Positions 1,659 through 11,869 of a DNA stretch of 13,911 nucleotides are shown piece after piece (the first letter of the stretch is position 1; every line of letters begins with the position of its first letter). The notes beneath the pieces are model-generated. The model did not search any database. It saw nothing but the letters and a program-made list of their open reading frames with translations, and had not been told where the DNA came from. The DNA is from a virus (lineage: Duplodnaviria; Heunggongvirae; Uroviricota; Caudoviricetes): the IMG/VR virus record IMGVR_UViG_2609459774_000004; one strand, given 5' to 3'. The translations under genes were made by a program, and so were the position numbers.

Positions 1659-4130
1659 TTAAGAATCAGCCTGACTCGGGATCAGTTTTTGCCAGATAAC
1701 TGAAACGTATTTTGCCTGGTAACGGGCGTCATCAAGTGCATTATGGCGCTCACCTTCGAATGGAATAGCCGTTCTGGCATCGAAGTCTATGGCTTTCCCC
1801 AGCTCAACGATTGTGCGTACATCGCGATCGTTGTAGTAACGCCACGGGCAGGGGATCCCCTGCCGTTCGTATGAACGGCGCAAAATCGTGTTGTCGAAGT
1901 TGGCTCCATTTCCCCAAACCTGAACAAAAAATTCACCGGAGTTTTCGTCGATAAATTCTCGCAATTGTAACAGTGCATCATCTAACGGGATTTCATCGGT
2001 CATAATGGCAGATTGCGCTTCGCGTGATTGCTTAAGCCACCATTTAATGGTGTCCCGATCAATGACTCCGCCAGCAGTTTCCAGATCGATAGTCTTACTA
2101 AATTCCGGTCCCATATCTCCGGTTTGCGGATCGAAAAATATTGCACCTATTGAGATGATCGGGGCATCAGGATTTTTTCCCATGGTTTCAAGGTCGATCA
2201 TTAGATGGTCACACGTCCTGCTGGTGGATGTGATTTCGTGATGACCGTTCACCTTAATTGGGTGATCTGCCGTCTCGCCAGTTTCATTATCGCTATTGTG
2301 ATGCTGATTGCCGCCAGTGTTCTCCTTGTGTGGATGTTCAGCGCCTTCCATTTCCTCCGGATCATCTTCCTGAACTTCAACCTGATACTCTTCATCGAAT
2401 GTTTCTTGGTATGTTGCGTCGCCCATCACCGCGCCACAATCAGGGCAGTTGCCGCCGCCGGTCTGACCGCAGGCGGTGCAGACTTTTTCCACTTCCTGTT
2501 GCGCTACTGGTTCAGGCTGTTTCGTTTCTGGCTCGTTTTGTAACGCATTTGGACTGTTTTGTTCCGCTTTTTGGTAGTTCCGTTCCGATTCATGCTGGTT
2601 CTGGTTCACAGAATCGCGGGTCTGGAGCCCCTTAACCCATTTCGGATCATTCGGGTCACTAATCCCTTCAACAAATTCACCACGTGATGCAGCAAGCAAC
2701 TTATCGGCGTCAGGCTGGCTGATATTGGCTGCCTGCATAATTTTGTTTACTTCGTCAGCGGTAACTTTTATCGGCTCTGGTTGTTCTGAATCTTCAGCGG
2801 TATCTACATTTTGCGGTAAGCCCGTGTATGTGCCATTTTTTCGGGCAAAATATTCTTCTTTTGTGATTTCAGTGGCGCCAGCAGCCAGTGCCTTATCCAG
2901 ACCAGAGAGTTTGTTTGCGCGACCGTATTTTTCTCCGTCCTTATCTGCGAAGAGGAAATAGAACGGCCCCTCACGCTCTACAGATGGTTCAGCTTCCGGC
3001 GCGGTTTCATTTTTTGGGATATCAGATACCTCAGTTTCCACTGCATCAGTTTGTGTTTCTGATGACTGGAGAACATCAACAGTGCCCAGGTCTGTTTCTT
3101 CATTCTCAAACACGCCCTTTGTCGTCAGGTATTCGCAGATATATTTGTTCAGTGCTACGGGATCTTTGTGAATGTCGATCGGACGCTCACGGACAAGGCC
3201 AAAAATAGTTTGGCGGTCGTAGCGAAGGGCATCAGGCTGTTTGCGCATTGATGCCGAGATACGCTTCCAGTCTTCGCGGTCGTTGTCGATAACTTCTTTT
3301 TTTGCCCAGCGATGGATGCTGCCGTCAATGTTTCCGGCATCCACATCACTAGGCCAGAGAGCGTAGGCCAGTTCGTCATCCAGTGTTTTCCATGTCTGCT
3401 TGTATTCGCGATGAATGGCAGCAATGACCGGGCTGATTTTTCCTGTTGAATTTTCAGTGTACTGTTGATTGGCTCTGGCGCGGGCGAGATCAACAACAGA
3501 CGTGTATTTTCCGGTTTCCTTGCGTTCACCTTCGCGACGTTTTTTCCAGATGCGCATCTCTGCCTGAATTTCGGGCCATTTAGCACCAGGAATACATTTA
3601 TGCTTAACCCACCCAATGGCGTGCAACTTAAGCTCCGGATACATGGCGTTAACTTCTGGCATTTTCATCAACGCTTCAACGATATGTCCGTCGAATGTTG
3701 CCATGTCTTCCTGCAACAATTCCTGTGCGCTAATAACCATATCAACGGTGATGTTTTCACATGTGTCGAACTTAACCATGACAGCGTTCTGTACTTCAGG
3801 GGCCAGCTTGTCAAAAGTGACGTTCATCGGATCGGATTCAGTCTCAACCGGGACAAAAGAAGCAGACTCCTCATCCCAGCGGTTTTCCTGCATATATTCA
3901 GCATCCCATGAATCGAGGGCAGGGCGGGGTATGCCAGGTTTATCCTCGCAGACAATAAATTTATAAGCGCAGTCCTGAGCAGCCGGATAATGTTCCAGGA
4001 ATTGCCAGTGAAATTTTGCTCGAGCACGGCGTTCGTCGCCAGCTTCAATGGCTGTGGCTACAGCCACAGCGCCTTCTTCCCTTGTTGCCAGTTCGTCAGG
4101 AATAGCGGCGCAAATAAAGACTTTACTCAT
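1659..4130 (-). CDS. Exonuclease VIII-like protein with C-terminal DEDDh (DnaQ-like) 3'-5' exonuclease domain; 823 aa from the ATG at 4130 (frame open to TTG at 4166)
   Basis: Track ORF 1659..4166. The ATG at 4128-4130 (MSKVF) has a GAGG Shine-Dalgarno 9 nt upstream. The C-terminus shows three DEDDh motifs (LMIDLETMG; VWGNGANFDNTIL; HNALDDARYQAKY). The centre has a CxxC-x10-CxxC ribbon (CTACGQTGGGNCPDCG) flanked by acidic and His-rich low-complexity linkers. By position this corresponds to the gene that K-12 Qin retains only as the IS2-truncated ydfE remnant. Confidence 0.8.
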   Translation of the reverse strand: MSKVFICAAIPDELATREEGAVAVATAIEAGDERRARAKFHWQFLEHYPAAQDCAYKFIVCEDKPGIPRPALDSWDAEYMQENRWDEESASFVPVETESDPMNVTFDKLAPEVQNAVMVKFDTCENITVDMVISAQELLQEDMATFDGHIVEALMKMPEVNAMYPELKLHAIGWVKHKCIPGAKWPEIQAEMRIWKKRREGERKETGKYTSVVDLARARANQQYTENSTGKISPVIAAIHREYKQTWKTLDDELAYALWPSDVDAGNIDGSIHRWAKKEVIDNDREDWKRISASMRKQPDALRYDRQTIFGLVRERPIDIHKDPVALNKYICEYLTTKGVFENEETDLGTVDVLQSSETQTDAVETEVSDIPKNETAPEAEPSVEREGPFYFLFADKDGEKYGRANKLSGLDKALAAGATEITKEEYFARKNGTYTGLPQNVDTAEDSEQPEPIKVTADEVNKIMQAANISQPDADKLLAASRGEFVEGISDPNDPKWVKGLQTRDSVNQNQHESERNYQKAEQNSPNALQNEPETKQPEPVAQQEVEKVCTACGQTGGGNCPDCGAVMGDATYQETFDEEYQVEVQEDDPEEMEGAEHPHKENTGGNQHHNSDNETGETADHPIKVNGHHEITSTSRTCDHLMIDLETMGKNPDAPIISIGAIFFDPQTGDMGPEFSKTIDLETAGGVIDRDTIKWWLKQSREAQSAIMTDEIPLDDALLQLREFIDENSGEFFVQVWGNGANFDNTILRRSYERQGIPCPWRYYNDRDVRTIVELGKAIDFDARTAIPFEGERHNALDDARYQAKYVSVIWQKLIPSQADS

Positions 4131-4222
4131 TTGTTTTAACCTCATGACAGATTTAAGGATGAACAAATCCCTGCCATTGCTGGCATATAAGAATGAAACC
4201 GGATATTTATTACGGAACTGTT

Positions 4223-4768: not shown

Positions 4769-4826
4769 AAAAAGGGCGGCAGAGCAGTCACGGAGTAAAA
4801 CTGATACCGCCAAACGTCACCAGAAA
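4769..4826 (-). ncRNA. dicF: DicF small regulatory RNA (53-nt body 4774..4826 plus U-tail)
   Basis: Minus-strand sequence UUUCUGGUGACGUUUGGCGGUAUCAGUUUUACUCCGUGACUGCUCUGCCGCCC followed by UUUUU matches DicF as I recall it, including a GC-rich 3' hairpin and U-tract. Located between ydfC and dicB as in Qin. Confidence 0.75.
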
Positions 4827-6584: not shown

Positions 6585-6885
6585 ACAGGCTCGTGAGGCT
6601 CTGGATGCCTGGATATGTCGACCAGGAATGACACAGGAGCAGGCGACGATATTAATCACTGAAGCATTCTGGGCTTTGAAAGAGCGCCCGAACATCGATG
6701 TTCAGCGTGTCACATATGAAGGTGGCGCGATTGATCAGCGAGCGCTTGGCGTTAATCGAGTGAAGATATTTGAACGCTGGAAGGCTATCGACACCAGGGA
6801 TAAGCGTGAAAAGTTCACGGCGCTAGTGCCTGCAATTATGGAGGCTACAGATTATTCCTTACCTCGTGAGTTTTGCCTTTGCTGA
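6568..6885 (+). CDS. YdaT-like (CII-analog family) protein, 105 aa, probably C-terminally truncated
   Basis: Overlaps the dicC 3' end. Shares the ...ERWKAIDTRDKREKF..LVPAIMEA...LPRE pattern I recall from Rac YdaT (about 140 aa). Ends early and overlaps the next ORF by 20 nt in another frame. Confidence 0.55.
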   Translation: MKITPEQAREALDAWICRPGMTQEQATILITEAFWALKERPNIDVQRVTYEGGAIDQRALGVNRVKIFERWKAIDTRDKREKFTALVPAIMEATDYSLPREFCLC

Positions 6886-7333
6886 TTACTCCAGGTCTGC
6901 GGCAAGTAAGGCTCGCTGTGAGCATTGTTCAGGTACGGGATTTTATAATGTATTGCGCGAAGTGGTGAAACACTACAGACGCGGGGAATCTGTAATCAAG
7001 GAAGAATGGGTGAAGGAACTATGTCAGCATTGCCATGGTAAGGGCGAAGCCAGCACAGCGTGCAGAGGGTGTAAGGGTAAAGGGATTGTTCTGGATGAAA
7101 AAAGAACCCGGTTTCATGGCGTACCGGTATATAAGATTTGTGGGCGTTGTAATGGAAACCGGTTTAGTCGTTTACCGACCACGCTGGCACGACGTCATGT
7201 CCAGAAGCTGGTACCAGACCTGACCGATTATCAGTGGTATAAGGGGTATGCGGACGTCATTGGTAAACTGGTAACAAAGTGCTGGCAGGAAGAAGCATAC
7301 GCGGAAGCGCAATTGAGGAAGGTGACGAGATAA
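6866..7333 (+). CDS. Cys-rich zinc-finger ORF (four CxxCxGxG/R DnaJ-like repeats), 155 aa; possibly the 3' remnant of a Q-like late antiterminator
   Basis: Repeats CEHCSGTG, CQHCHGKG, CRGCKGKG, CGRCNGNR. Only a GTG start with no Shine-Dalgarno and no internal ATG; upstream in-frame stop at 6824-6826. It occupies the position of quuQ relative to cspF/cspB/essQ in Qin. Could equally be annotated as a pseudogene. Confidence 0.4.
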   Translation: MSFAFADYSRSAASKARCEHCSGTGFYNVLREVVKHYRRGESVIKEEWVKELCQHCHGKGEASTACRGCKGKGIVLDEKRTRFHGVPVYKICGRCNGNRFSRLPTTLARRHVQKLVPDLTDYQWYKGYADVIGKLVTKCWQEEAYAEAQLRKVTR

Positions 7334-7754: not shown

Positions 7755-7967
7755 TCATGAAAGGTAAACATTGGCAGCTGAAGGGCCACGCAGACCATTT
7801 ATCCGGCAAAATTCCACGCGTAATCCGGTGGTAATTTCTTCTGCATCGCGGAGATTGAGCGCTGAAACATGAAGCTGGACATCGATACGACCATCGGATG
7901 GGGTGATAAGACCCTTGCCGCTTTTGCCGTCAAAGGTTTTGACAATTCCTGTCATTTTACGGGACAA
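7755..7967 (-). CDS. cspF: Cold-shock-domain protein, CspF/CspH subfamily, 70 aa
   Basis: [27 protein letters not shown]...[20 protein letters not shown] matches the CspF/CspH pattern I recall. Divergent from a cspB-like gene as in Qin. cspF versus cspH cannot be resolved by eye. Confidence 0.85.
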
Positions 7968-8267
7968 AAAAATTCCTTAATACTGATAACTTGGCGCACT
8001 ATACACACGTTCCTGAAGAAAGCTATAGTTTTTTGATGGGGTTGAAGATGGCTGGATGTCTAAAATAAACATTGCTTCATATGTTCAACTATGCGTTAAT
8101 GATTGCGTCGGTTTGAAGAACAGACGATATACGAAGTAGTTTACTAAAGCAGTTCTCATTTCAGGTGTTATTCACTTATTCCTTCTTTGAGTCTCTCCAA
8201 TTAAGTACGAAGTCGTTTCTGTTATGCAAACCATTTATGCCGAAAGGCTCAAGTTAAGGAATGTAGA
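7968..8267. promoter_or_regulatory. Divergent promoter and long 5'-UTR region between the cspF-like and cspB-like genes
   Basis: 300-bp AT-rich intergenic region between divergent cold-shock genes; cspA-family genes typically have long 5' leaders. No specific element mapped. Confidence 0.35.
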
Positions 8268-8483
8268 ATGTCAAATAAAATGACTGGTTTAGTAAAATGG
8301 TTTAACGCTGATAAAGGTTTCGGCTTTATTTCTCCTGTTGATGGTAGTAAAGATGTGTTTGTGCATTTTTCTGCGATTCAGAATGATAATTATCGAACCT
8401 TATTTGAAGGTCAAAAGGTTACCTTCTCTATAGAGAGTGGTGCTAAAGGTCCTGCAGCAGCAAATGTCATCATTACTGATTAA
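8268..8483 (+). CDS. cspB: Cold-shock protein CspB-like, 71 aa
   Basis: [67 protein letters not shown]... carries the RNP1/RNP2 motifs of the CspA family and the CspB-type variable residues. AAGGAA Shine-Dalgarno upstream. Confidence 0.9.
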
Positions 8484-8764
8484 AATTCATCGCTCGTCTG
8501 TATACGATAACGAAGAAGGCTGATGCCTGAGTAGAGATACGGACAGAGTAGTGAATATTGGATCTCTTTAATAAAAAGTAAGGAGGTCCAATACATGAAA
8601 CAATGGCTAGCATATTTGGCAAAATCTTAATCAGGAAAAGTATGCTAACCATTGTGGTGAAGTGCAGGTTTGCTGCATGAATAGTTTTACAGCAGAAGCT
8701 AACTGCTGGCATGGCAAAACAAAGTGCGTAAGTGGATGACTCCCACAAAAAGCACCACAATCTC

Positions 8765-8790
8765 AAACCCGCTCAGGCGGGTTTTTTATT
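8765..8790 (+). terminator. Rho-independent terminator (possibly bidirectional)
   Basis: AAACCCGC-ucag-GCGGGUUUUUUAUU: 8-bp GC-rich stem, tetraloop, U6 tail, preceded by an A-tract. Lies downstream of cspB on the plus strand and of the 56-aa zinc-ribbon gene on the minus strand. Confidence 0.6.
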
Positions 8791-8846: not shown

Positions 8847-9017
8847 TCAGGCTACAGCTTTAAGATTTGTCTGGAATACTTTGTTGCAATGAGGGCAGAT
8901 CAAAAGGGCACCTTTTTGTACTCTTGAAAAACTGTGTTCTGACTCTTGGGTGCAGTTTGGGCAGGAACATTTAACGAGATAATTACGGCGTGATTTTGAG
9001 TTTTTACGTTCTGACAT
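8847..9017 (-). CDS. Small zinc-ribbon protein (C-x-C-x2-C ... C-x2-C), 56 aa; YnfU/YmcF-like
   Basis: Internal Met of track ORF 8847..9068: MSERKNSKSRRNYLVKCSCPNCTQESEHSFSRVQKGALLICPHCNKVFQTNLKAVA. AGGAA Shine-Dalgarno 6 nt upstream. Family name from memory of csp-adjacent small proteins in K-12; not verified. Confidence 0.5.
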   Translation of the reverse strand: MSERKNSKSRRNYLVKCSCPNCTQESEHSFSRVQKGALLICPHCNKVFQTNLKAVA

Positions 9018-9236
9018 AGGCTTTTCCTGTATAAATGGCCGTATACAGTACACTAAATATGAAAACATTTCTCGTATTATTATTTTATATATGACTTTCT
9101 TTCAAAATAATTACCCACATTTTTAATGTGTATGTTTTTTTAGCGCCGTTGAGAACAACGTGTGCTGTCAAAACTACCCCGTAGACTCCGATCTTTTCAA
9201 ACATATTGCACCATCCGTGTACATCGGGGTGAGGAT

Positions 9237-10792: not shown

Positions 10793-11155
10793 GGTAATAT
10801 TAAATCGGAACATTTACATCGCGGAATGTAAAATTTAAATAAAAAGGACTCTTCCATGAGCCAAAATTCCTGAAATCTTAAGGGTAAGATAAAAGGTCTT
10901 AATCAGAATGACACGTTTTATTAATAAATAAAGCTATTCTTTCATTGCTGTGTTTTTCTTTACAAAAGTAATCCTTGCTATGGGTGGTTAATCATGAGTT
11001 AATGGTGTTCTGGTTTGTTACAAATTTATCTGAAGCAGTCATTGTTATAATTTTATTATTTGTACCTCTTGAGATTTCCTTGTTGGTTTTTCTCTCTGAT
11101 ATTTTTTTTTCGGACCATTCTGCCCAAGGGCTAATTTCTTCAAAAGGTAATAATT

Positions 11156-11368
11156 ATGTCTAACAAAATGACTGGTTTAGTGAAATGGTTTAACCCTGAA
11201 AAAGGTTTTGGTTTCATCACGCCGAAAGATGGCAGCAAAGATGTGTTTGTCCATTTCTCAGCAATTCAGAGCAACGATTTCAAAACATTAACTGAGAATC
11301 AGGAAGTTGAATTTGGTATTGAGAACGGACCTAAAGGTCCTGCCGCTGTTCATGTAGTGGCGCTTTGA
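11156..11368 (+). CDS. cspI: Cold-shock protein CspI, 70 aa
   Basis: [70 protein letters not shown] matches CspI of Qin as I recall it. Long AT-rich 5' leader upstream. Confidence 0.9.
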
Positions 11369-11567
11369 GGTAGACAATATTACAAACCATATTCACTTTA
11401 GATGCCCGTGTTGTCATGGTTCCCAGTATAGAACATCATCTTTTGATGTTTCTGACATGAATCCTTTCGGGGCAAAATGTATCTTTTGTAAATCAATGAT
11501 GATTACATTTGATAATATTTCACAATACTTAAATGTTAGCCATCTGTCGTTAGATTTAAGAAAGTGA
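11358..11567 (+). other. Candidate second small zinc-ribbon ORF (paralog of the 8847..9017 protein) with no canonical start upstream of its Cys motifs
   Basis: Hand-translated frame: ...HFRCPCCHGSQYRTSSFDVSDMNPFGAKCIFCKSMMITFDNISQYLNVSHLSLDLRK*. Cys spacing (C-x-CC ... C-x2-C, with SF in the linker) parallels the 56-aa protein. The only ATG is at 11457, after the first Cys cluster. The stop is 8 nt before the terminator hairpin. May be a degenerate paralog or use a non-canonical start. Confidence 0.25.
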
Positions 11568-11574
11568 AAATGAA

Positions 11575-11597
11575 GGCTCCTTCGGGAGCTTTTTTGC
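11575..11597 (+). terminator. Rho-independent terminator after the cspI unit
   Basis: GGCUCC-uucg-GGAGCU followed by UUUUU: 5-6 bp stem with UUCG tetraloop and U-tract. Confidence 0.5.
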
Positions 11598-11638
11598 TTA
11601 GTGTCTAGTCGATGGATACTCACATATTACGGTAACAT

Positions 11639-11869
11639 ATGAAAAAAATAATAGTTTTTTTTAACTCTGAACCAGCAATGGTAGTGCCAGTGATGACCGG
11701 AGTTAACACCATCATGCGTGAATACCCAAATGGCGAAACAACACACCTCACTGTAATGGCTGCAGGGTTTCCATCTCTGACCGGAGATCATAAAGTCATT
11801 TATGTAGCAGCGGATCGACATGTAACTTCAGAAGAAATTCTGGAAGCAGCAATGAGACTCTTGAATTGA
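11639..11869 (+). CDS. ynfN: YnfN/YmcE-like small protein, 76 aa
   Basis: Track ORF. Lies between cspI and gnsB, where ynfN lies in Qin (ymcE-gnsA is the paralogous pair). Weak Shine-Dalgarno. Assigned by position and size only. Confidence 0.55.
   Translation: MKKIIVFFNSEPAMVVPVMTGVNTIMREYPNGETTHLTVMAAGFPSLTGDHKVIYVAADRHVTSEEILEAAMRLLN

Follow-up and report, generated by a model that had tools for sequence, protein, structure and literature searches.

Two catalogued small zinc-ribbon-type genes beside the cold-shock genes of a Qin-like prophage: ynfU, and ynfQ with its annotated AUU start codon

In 2017 infC and pcnB were counted as the only two genes of Escherichia coli with an AUU start codon (PMC5499595). 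In infC, whose product is IF3, the AUU or AUC codon is conserved because IF3 rejects such a start, and this rejection is reportedly less strict in the cold (PMC5499595). In vitro, mRNAs with AUU competed poorly at low temperature (PMC5499595), which makes an AUU codon more plausible as a limiter than as a signal for preference in the cold. The infC gene is also the second cistron of the thrS-infC pair, in which the junction reads UAA GGU AUU and about half of second-cistron translation in a reporter arose by reinitiation (PMC3592434).

The two small genes treated here, ynfU and ynfQ, the families to which they belong and the ATT start of ynfQ are already in RefSeq, Pfam and NCBIfam, and none of these is new. 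The first account of ymcF and ynfQ and of the AUU start is probably that of Zhang et al., who published ribosome profiling of cold-shocked cells in Mol Cell in 2018. ynfQ has been listed as induced by cold shock together with cspI and ynfN (PMC11228462), and as co-regulated with cspG, cspH, cspI and ymcF (PMC11728337). YnfR, the product of a small ORF next to ynfQ, rose strongly after cold shock (PMC6001520). YnfU came to light when Weaver et al. profiled ribosomes with initiation complexes stalled, and with a chromosomal SPA tag the K-12 protein was seen to be made, at the top level among the new proteins (10.1101/511675). In the literature the name ynfQ has also been given to a different ORF, of 37 aa, between ydfJ and ydfK (VanOrsdel et al., 2018).

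The DNA analyzed, referred to below as the window, is a stretch of 13,911 nucleotides from the IMG/VR virus record IMGVR_UViG_2609459774_000004. It is a cryptic lambdoid prophage of E. coli, Qin-like and reduced, and the part around the two small genes is the late region. The prophage order is integrase, DicF, repressor, Q, cspF, cspB, ynfU, essQ-ydfR-rrrQ-rzpQ, cspI, ynfQ, ynfR, ynfN, gnsB, and from cspF to gnsB the gene order is that of Qin in K-12 read on the opposite strand (Table 1). The match of the cspI transcript to Rfam RF01766 extends across the start of ynfQ. Taken as a whole, the window very probably carries two catalogued small genes beside its csp genes, one of which, ynfQ, would be the AUU-started second cistron of the cspI mRNA, with its translation apparently coupled to that of cspI.

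Table 1. Features of the window, in order of position
Feature	Position	Strand	Basis or remark
Integrase	20-1315	minus	
Large exonuclease-domain ORF	left half of window		
DicF RNA	4774-4825	minus	
HTH repressor	left half of window		listed between DicF and Q
Q antiterminator	6866-7333		
cspF	7755-7967	minus	
cspB mRNA: cspA-type thermoregulator leader and CDS (8268-8483)	8107-8499	+	Rfam RF01766, 158.8 bits; ORF list
cspB terminator hairpin, between convergent cspB and ynfU	8765-8790	+	terminator scan
ynfU CDS, 56 aa, two CPxC zinc knuckles, basic N-terminus	8847-9017	minus	identity to K-12; matches to PF23499 and NF038384
ynfU start codon ATG	9017-9015	minus	sequence
ynfU Shine-Dalgarno AGGA, 7 nt 5' of ATG	9025-9028	minus	sequence
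Candidate sigma-70 promoter of ynfU, TTGAAA-18-AATAAT, 10/12 matches	9076-9105	minus	consensus scan only; no functional weight
Lysis genes: holin essQ, ydfR, rrrQ, rzpQ (rzoQ inside rzpQ)	between ynfU and cspI		
cspI mRNA: cspA-type thermoregulator leader and CDS (11156-11368)	11009-11395	+	Rfam RF01766, 111.9 bits; ORF list; annotation
ynfQ Shine-Dalgarno GAGG, overlapping cspI TGA (11366-11368), 8 nt before ATT	11367-11370	+	sequence; conserved position
ynfQ (YmcF family) CDS, 62 aa, ATT start, Cys4 zinc ribbon	11379-11567	+	RefSeq; PF23641; conserved start codon; dN/dS
ynfR remnant, 12 codons, ended early by TAG	11570-11608	+	K-12 YnfR is 21 aa; "too short" pseudogene in an identical strain
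Terminator-like hairpin GGCTCC-UUCG-GGAGCU and T-run, within the ynfR frame	about 11575-11595	+	sequence; the scan called it on the minus strand only
ynfN	11639-11869		
gnsB and IS transposase	right end of window, beyond ynfN		

A preliminary description made from the letters of the window reported a 56-aa ORF with a good Shine-Dalgarno sequence between cspB and the holin gene. The ORF is present there as a stand-alone gene, on the minus strand and convergent with cspB, with its own ATG behind AGGA. In the comparison with K-12 YnfU that the same description proposed, the two proteins were 100% identical over 56 aa, and in K-12 the gene (b4776) occupies the same cspB-essQ interval of Qin. The protein matches Pfam PF23499 (E 3.5e-31, 107.3 bits against a cut-off of 27) and NCBIfam NF038384 (E 1.1e-22, 79.4 bits against a cut-off of 36); the Pfam scan also returned a weak PhnA-ribbon match. 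These matches identify the first frame as ynfU, an already catalogued gene and another strain's copy of b4776. The cysteines are laid out as C17-x-C19-P-x-C22, 18 residues, and C41-P-x-C44. In an alignment of 22 members P20, C22, P42, C44 and S26-F30 are invariant and C17, C19 and C41 are kept in at least 90%, and the conserved core, SEHSF-R-QKG with the two CPxC knuckles, is present in the window protein.

Of 5426 complete E. coli genomes, 1650 carry DNA of the ynfU region. ynfU has a csp gene at a distance of about 0.5 kb or less in E. coli, Klebsiella, Salmonella, Kluyvera and a Superficieibacter prophage, the last of which repeats the Qin order Q-cspF-cspB-ynfU-holin; among the loci compared for csp neighbors, none was near ynfU in Enterobacter. 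Nearly all ynfU loci on viral contigs repeated the Qin-type arrangement of E. coli and did little to widen the sample.

The second frame lies behind cspI. It is open from 11358, after an in-frame TAG at 11355-11357, to the TGA at 11565-11567. RefSeq places a 189-nt gene at window positions 11379-11567, named ymcF or ynfQ and described as "cold shock small protein YmcF"; K-12 (as ynfQ, b4724) and many other strains carry the annotation, among them one that matches the window at 100% identity from cspI to ynfQ. The product matches Pfam PF23641, "YmcF-like", over residues 1-62 of 62 (E 2.3e-33, 114.6 bits against a cut-off of 27). With K-12 YnfQ it shares 95% identity, the three substitutions lying in the C-terminal tail, and with K-12 YmcF (b4723), the gene for which likewise lies 3' of its csp neighbor, cspG, it shares 68%. 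By annotation and family match the second frame is thus identified as ynfQ, an intact and already annotated member of the YmcF family of cold shock small proteins. The identical protein sequence is recorded on 246 contigs, and DNA of the cspI-ynfQ region is present in 2146 of 5426 complete E. coli genomes, about 40%. With family scores far above the curated cut-offs and related DNA in so many genomes, neither of the two frames is open by chance.

The family is a narrow one, with 44 matches among 1.84 billion representative proteins. These are small proteins except for four long ones; two of the long ones were inspected and proved to be spurious repeats, and the only informative fusion is one with a cold-shock domain (CSD) in Citrobacter sedlakii, which is taken up below. 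The cysteines of YnfQ are arranged as C9-P-C11-C12, 21 residues, and C34-x-x-C37. In an alignment of 22 sequences C9, C11, C12, C34 and C37 are invariant together with flanking residues, giving a core CPCCHGSQYR...GAKCIFCK; in a more diverse set of 18, C9, C12 and C37 are invariant and C11 and C34 are kept in at least 90%. Conservation of the Cys motif in relatives, on which the preliminary description had made its proposal depend, is therefore what these alignments show. A GC-rich UUCG hairpin follows the end of ynfQ after 7-8 nt and corresponds to the terminator that had been noted 8 nt behind the second frame.

For the start codon, loci of the ynfQ type were gathered as the best 80 of 276 genome loci, with one genome per species, plus the K-12 loci; the 81 loci used comprise 79 from enterobacterial relatives, the window and one identical strain. 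From the TAG at 11355-11357 to the first Cys codon the window has no in-frame ATG, GTG or TTG, as had been stated beforehand, and at least 25 other loci likewise offer no canonical start in frame from the stop upstream to the Cys cluster. Of the 81 loci, 58 have ATT as the codon 24 nt ahead of the first Cys, 19 have ATG there and 4 have ATC. AAGG, GAGG or AGGAG stands 8 nt 5' of this ATT, ATG or ATC codon in essentially all loci, and in those without an adjacent csp stop such a motif is found 11-12 nt upstream of the start in every case. A single fixed codon that alternates between AUG and AUU or AUC behind a fixed Shine-Dalgarno sequence argues for a real start, and the start of ynfQ in the window is accordingly read as the AUU at 11379. 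ATT is also the annotated start of both ynfQ and ymcF in K-12. The second frame had been called start-less; by RefSeq annotation and by this conserved codon, it has a start.

The junction with the upstream gene is conserved as well. A CspA-family ORF ends 9-10 nt before the start codon in 49 of the 79 loci, from at least 11 genera, and in these 49 coupled loci the csp stop, TAA or TGA, overlaps the Shine-Dalgarno sequence as TAAGG or TGAGG. All 49 begin with ATT or ATC, although they are phylogenetically related and do not stand for 49 independent events. By their ORF listing, all 19 loci with ATG are without an adjacent csp stop; they come from Klebsiella, Raoultella, Enterobacter, Silvania and C. 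sedlakii, and several retain a remnant of the csp 3' end. ATT is still found in 11 loci that are without an adjacent csp stop, namely those of Pseudescherichia, those of Atlantibacter, in which the next codon is ATG, and one locus cut by a contig end. An Ile codon likewise serves as the start in Kluyvera, which was not among the loci counted, and no csp lies directly upstream there. Since these 11 loci and Kluyvera keep an Ile-codon start, AUU appears to be usable without coupling, and the association of csp adjacency with AUU or AUC, as judged from these loci, is strong, not absolute. The layout of the genes suggests that translation of ynfQ is coupled to that of csp. In C. sedlakii the csp stop has been lost through a short deletion at the 3' end of the gene, and CSD and YmcF form an in-frame fusion of 130 aa, which is species-wide.

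An RNA structure that conceals the ynfQ start was considered and rejected: the predicted fold of 11330-11430 is no better than that of shuffled sequences (z -0.68).

On a larger scale, an island in Kluyvera with cspF-like, cspB-like, ynfU, ymcF-like and ynfN-like genes has the Qin layout minus the lysis cassette and cspI, and a ymcF-like gene is the divergent neighbor of ynfU in Kluyvera, Atlantibacter and Citrobacter meridianamericanus. A mobile unit of a csp gene plus a zinc-ribbon gene had been proposed for both frames of the window. For ynfQ such a unit is real, as seen in the csp coupling of 49 of the 79 loci, and for ynfU the proposal holds in part, with a csp nearby in five genera and not in Enterobacter.

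The preliminary description left a choice between decay and unusual initiation for the second frame, and of these unusual initiation, at AUU, has stood. A pseudogene whose start codon has been lost would account for the absence of ATG, GTG and TTG ahead of the Cys cluster, and the neighboring ynfR is indeed shortened in the window. Decay is excluded, however, because dN/dS is low, with a median from 504 pairs of 0.13, falling to 0.07 for codons 2-45 and reaching 0.43 for the variable tail, which denotes purifying selection, and because the start codon is fixed behind a fixed Shine-Dalgarno sequence, where ATT, ATC and ATG interchange. The frame is also intact in 70 of the 79 loci, across more than 10 genera, about 40% of the complete E. 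coli genomes have related DNA, and K-12 carries the same annotated ATT; the pseudogene reading is almost certainly wrong. Initiation might instead occur at another non-canonical codon, such as the ATT at 11391, which is in frame, lies ahead of the first Cys and would give a protein of 58 aa. This is very unlikely: all ymcF-type loci have CTC (Leu) in its place, the conserved Shine-Dalgarno sequence is about 20 nt away from it, and the ATG variants all fall at the codon equivalent to 11379. In a further rival reading ynfQ would be read from cspI by recoding, through a prfB-like +1 shift at CUU UGA or through read-through, so that a CspI-YnfQ fusion is made. The window reads GCG CTT TGA G at this point; it shares CTT TGA at the end of cspI with K-12, the frame downstream is +1, and the fusion in C. 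sedlakii proves that a joined Csp-YmcF protein occurs in nature. Yet CTT TGA is not conserved, the relatives having CTC TAA, GTA TAA, CGC TAA or CGT TGA, and 44 loci have a frame offset of +1 and 7 an offset of 0. Neither the heptamer nor the offset is kept, an SD-like stimulator at the prfB spacing is absent, and many homologs stand alone with no csp upstream. The TAG at 11355-11357 lies in the +1 frame 9 nt before the shift site, which is compatible with a shift, but no longer overlap has been selected. With context and offset not conserved in the relatives, the prfB-like frameshift was rejected, the likeness to prfB is considered to be due to chance, and recoding of either kind is extremely improbable. 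The reading preferred over all of these is initiation at the AUU of 11379.

Both frames had been regarded as small Cys4 proteins of the zinc-ribbon type linked to csp genes, which is borne out, and also as paralogs with the same Cys spacing, which is not. If they were paralogs, a unit of csp plus zinc-ribbon gene would have been duplicated and co-mobilized, and the second copy would be YnfU-like. In favor of this, one prophage has both of these small CxxC...CxxC proteins encoded close to csp genes, both have weak, sub-threshold matches to the NCBIfam model ECs_2282_CxxC (E 0.068 and 0.002), and the genes recur as neighbors in Kluyvera, Atlantibacter and one Citrobacter. On the other side, BLASTP of YnfU against YnfQ gave no alignment at E<=100, and hhalign of profiles built from 22 sequences each gave a probability of 1.3% (E 0.04) over 7 columns, corresponding to a single CPxC knuckle and pairing knuckle 2 of YnfU with knuckle 1 of YnfQ. 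The knuckles are separated by 18 residues in YnfU (C22-C41) and by 21 in YnfQ (C12-C34), and the conserved motifs outside the cysteines are all unalike, SEHSFSRVQKG in the one and HGSQYRTS...GAKCIFCK in the other. The orientation relative to csp also differs, ynfU being convergent with csp and ynfQ a co-directional second cistron. Paralogy is therefore highly improbable, and the two proteins belong to separate families, PF23499 and PF23641. Of the zinc-ribbon second copy that the preliminary description wished to see compared with YmcF, the Cys4 ribbon type has been upheld; it is not a copy of YnfU and belongs itself, as ynfQ, to the YmcF family.

AlphaFold models from the 22-sequence alignments have, for both proteins, short beta-hairpins that carry the knuckles, and for YnfQ an additional C-terminal helix. 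The mean pLDDT is 72.8 for YnfQ, with 83-91 over residues 11-40, and 68.8 for YnfU. The Cys pattern and the modelled hairpins fit four Cys ligands on two knuckles around one Zn. YnfQ is predicted to fold as a Cys4 zinc ribbon with a short C-terminal helix and may bind zinc. Foldseek of both models against the PDB gave nothing at E<=0.001, the best matches being a TFIIE-alpha ribbon (E 0.32), with eL43-type ribosomal proteins ranked just below it, and archaeal ribosomal zinc proteins (E 0.26). Profile searches of PDB sequences returned only weak matches (E>=0.016), and in PHROGs YnfU had weak matches (E>=0.002) to families without an assigned function and YnfQ had none. The ribbons of TFIIE-alpha, eL43, the eS27-type archaeal proteins and the N-terminus of PhnA/YjdM carry two CxxC knuckles on beta-hairpins, as do the models of YnfU and YnfQ, but the top matches to such generic ribbons are non-significant in fold and in profile, and no function can be transferred from them. 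That YnfQ acts with a CspA-family protein on RNA or on the ribosome is a guess, and the weakest step of the argument.

In sum, a cspA-type mRNA carries ynfQ as its conserved second cistron, with an AUU start and a Shine-Dalgarno sequence that overlaps the csp stop. From this layout a mode of translation may be envisaged in which the weak AUU, 10 nt beyond the cspI stop, would be used by ribosomes that have just terminated at this stop or have been brought in by the overlapping Shine-Dalgarno sequence. YnfQ would be made as a small, fixed fraction of the output of CspI, mainly in the cold, when the cspI mRNA is stabilized and heavily translated. The AUU would be subject to rejection by IF3, which would be weaker in the cold, and the junction would work in the manner of thrS-infC.

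A wider reading, offered as a tentative one, is that the csp stop, the Shine-Dalgarno sequence and the AUU together form a conserved device of the thrS-infC kind. YmcF might then be made only by ribosomes that have finished a CspA-family ORF, or when proof-reading by IF3 becomes lax in the cold, and a low ratio of YmcF to Csp would be fixed in this way. On the same reading YmcF might be a physical partner of Csp, because of the in-frame fusion in C. sedlakii and the switch to AUG in each sampled lineage without an adjacent csp stop. YnfU might join them as the third component of a mobile cold-shock island, because it recurs divergently next to ymcF or csp-ymcF in Kluyvera, Atlantibacter, Citrobacter and Qin. 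The hypothesis on the dosing of the small cold-shock proteins relative to CspG and CspI is based on three findings: AUU or AUC as the start of 49 of 49 csp-coupled loci, AUG only in loci without an adjacent csp stop, and the natural Csp-YmcF fusion. The junction pattern and the fusion are modest additions to what is known of these genes. The locus may also serve as a test case, in which a conserved frame that seems to lack a start, directly behind a stop codon, can be a real gene initiated at AUU.

Compared with the relatives in K-12, the ynfQ gene of the window has the same ATT start, the same gap of 10 nt from the csp stop and the same terminator-like hairpin behind the gene as K-12 ynfQ and ymcF; it differs in that the downstream ynfR is shortened. 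The closest systems beyond the family are thrS-infC and, with infC itself, pcnB. With prfB the window has in common the CUU UGA at the end of cspI and a following gene in the +1 frame, features not kept in the relatives. The AUU of infC is a means by which IF3 regulates its own gene, and no such loop is known for ynfQ; the distance from stop to AUU is 10 nt in ynfQ compared with 3 nt in infC. What ynfQ shares with thrS-infC is a Shine-Dalgarno sequence that overlaps or abuts the stop, UAA GGU AUU in infC and UGA GGU AGA CAA U AUU at the ynfQ junction, and, with thrS-infC and pcnB alike, an upstream gene or a gene of its own that is inducible by cold. As in these systems, a rare AUU, replaced by AUC in some species, stands a few nucleotides after the upstream stop, and this start is conserved across species, with ATT in 58 and ATC in 4 of the 81 ynfQ-type loci.

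The start codon of ymcF-like genes (the family of ynfQ, the 62-aa gene that follows cspI in the window) tracks with gene layout. Among the best 80 of 276 genome loci, counted without regard to kinship, each of the 49 with a csp stop codon 9–10 nt upstream had an ATT or ATC start, and ATG starts were restricted to 19 loci in which the csp stop is not adjacent. In Citrobacter sedlakii a short deletion at the 3' end of the csp gene has taken out its stop codon, producing an in-frame fusion of a cold-shock domain with YmcF, in which the old YmcF start position reads ATG. The fusion is found throughout this species in several 130-aa variants, one of them on 100 contigs.

Features of the window and of related loci
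Feature	Sequence	Position	Strand	Remarks
DicF antisense sRNA	window	4774-4825	-	Rfam RF00039, 76.7 bits
cspA thermoregulator	window	8107-8499	+	full-length match spanning cspB transcript
cspA thermoregulator	window	11009-11395	+	full-length match spanning cspI transcript
CTT TGA G	window	11363-11369	+	cspI 3' end; following gene in +1 frame
ynfR	window	11570-11608	+	tiny ORF immediately 3' of ynfQ
ynfN	window	11639-11869	+	76 aa
Cold-shock domain-YmcF fusion ORF	L011, Citrobacter sedlakii	2297-2689		130 aa, in frame
ynfU + ymcF-like	L080/L081, Atlantibacter	about 1836-2680		divergent neighbours
Compact chromosomal island	L173, Kluyvera	2403-4204		adjoins thrS

The end of cspI shares a heptamer core with the prfB frameshift site. 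A frameshift of the prfB type was considered and rejected; the heptamer is not conserved in relatives, and the likeness is therefore probably a coincidence. The thermoregulator match at cspI continues beyond the cspI stop codon and across the Shine-Dalgarno sequence and start codon of ynfQ. The other RNA element, DicF, lies in the early region of the reduced prophage. As to nomenclature, VanOrsdel et al. (2018) used "ynfQ" for another ORF, of 37 aa, between ydfJ and ydfK (PMC6001520); the name now denotes the gene that follows cspI.

The ynfR frame overlaps a terminator-like hairpin that follows ynfQ in the window. It comprises 12 codons, ended by TAG, compared to 21 aa in K-12, for which strong cold induction of YnfR has been reported (PMC6001520). 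In a strain identical to the window across the 598-nt segment over which the two were compared (11103-11700), ynfR is annotated as a "too short" pseudogene. The length of ynfN in the window is also that of most strains, compared to 51 aa (156 nt) annotated in K-12, so the K-12 copy looks N-terminally shortened. No Pfam family was found for ynfN.

In Atlantibacter, an interval of ~490 nt that holds no csp gene separates ynfU (in the window the gene for a 56-aa Cys4 protein) from the ymcF-like gene, and the start region of the latter reads ATT ATG. The Kluyvera island, which is outside the 80 loci, carries ynfN-like, ymcF-like, ynfU, cspB-like and cspF-like genes; its ymcF-like gene begins with an Ile codon and has no csp gene directly upstream. 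Although it is without the lysis cassette and cspI, this island has the same gene order as Qin.
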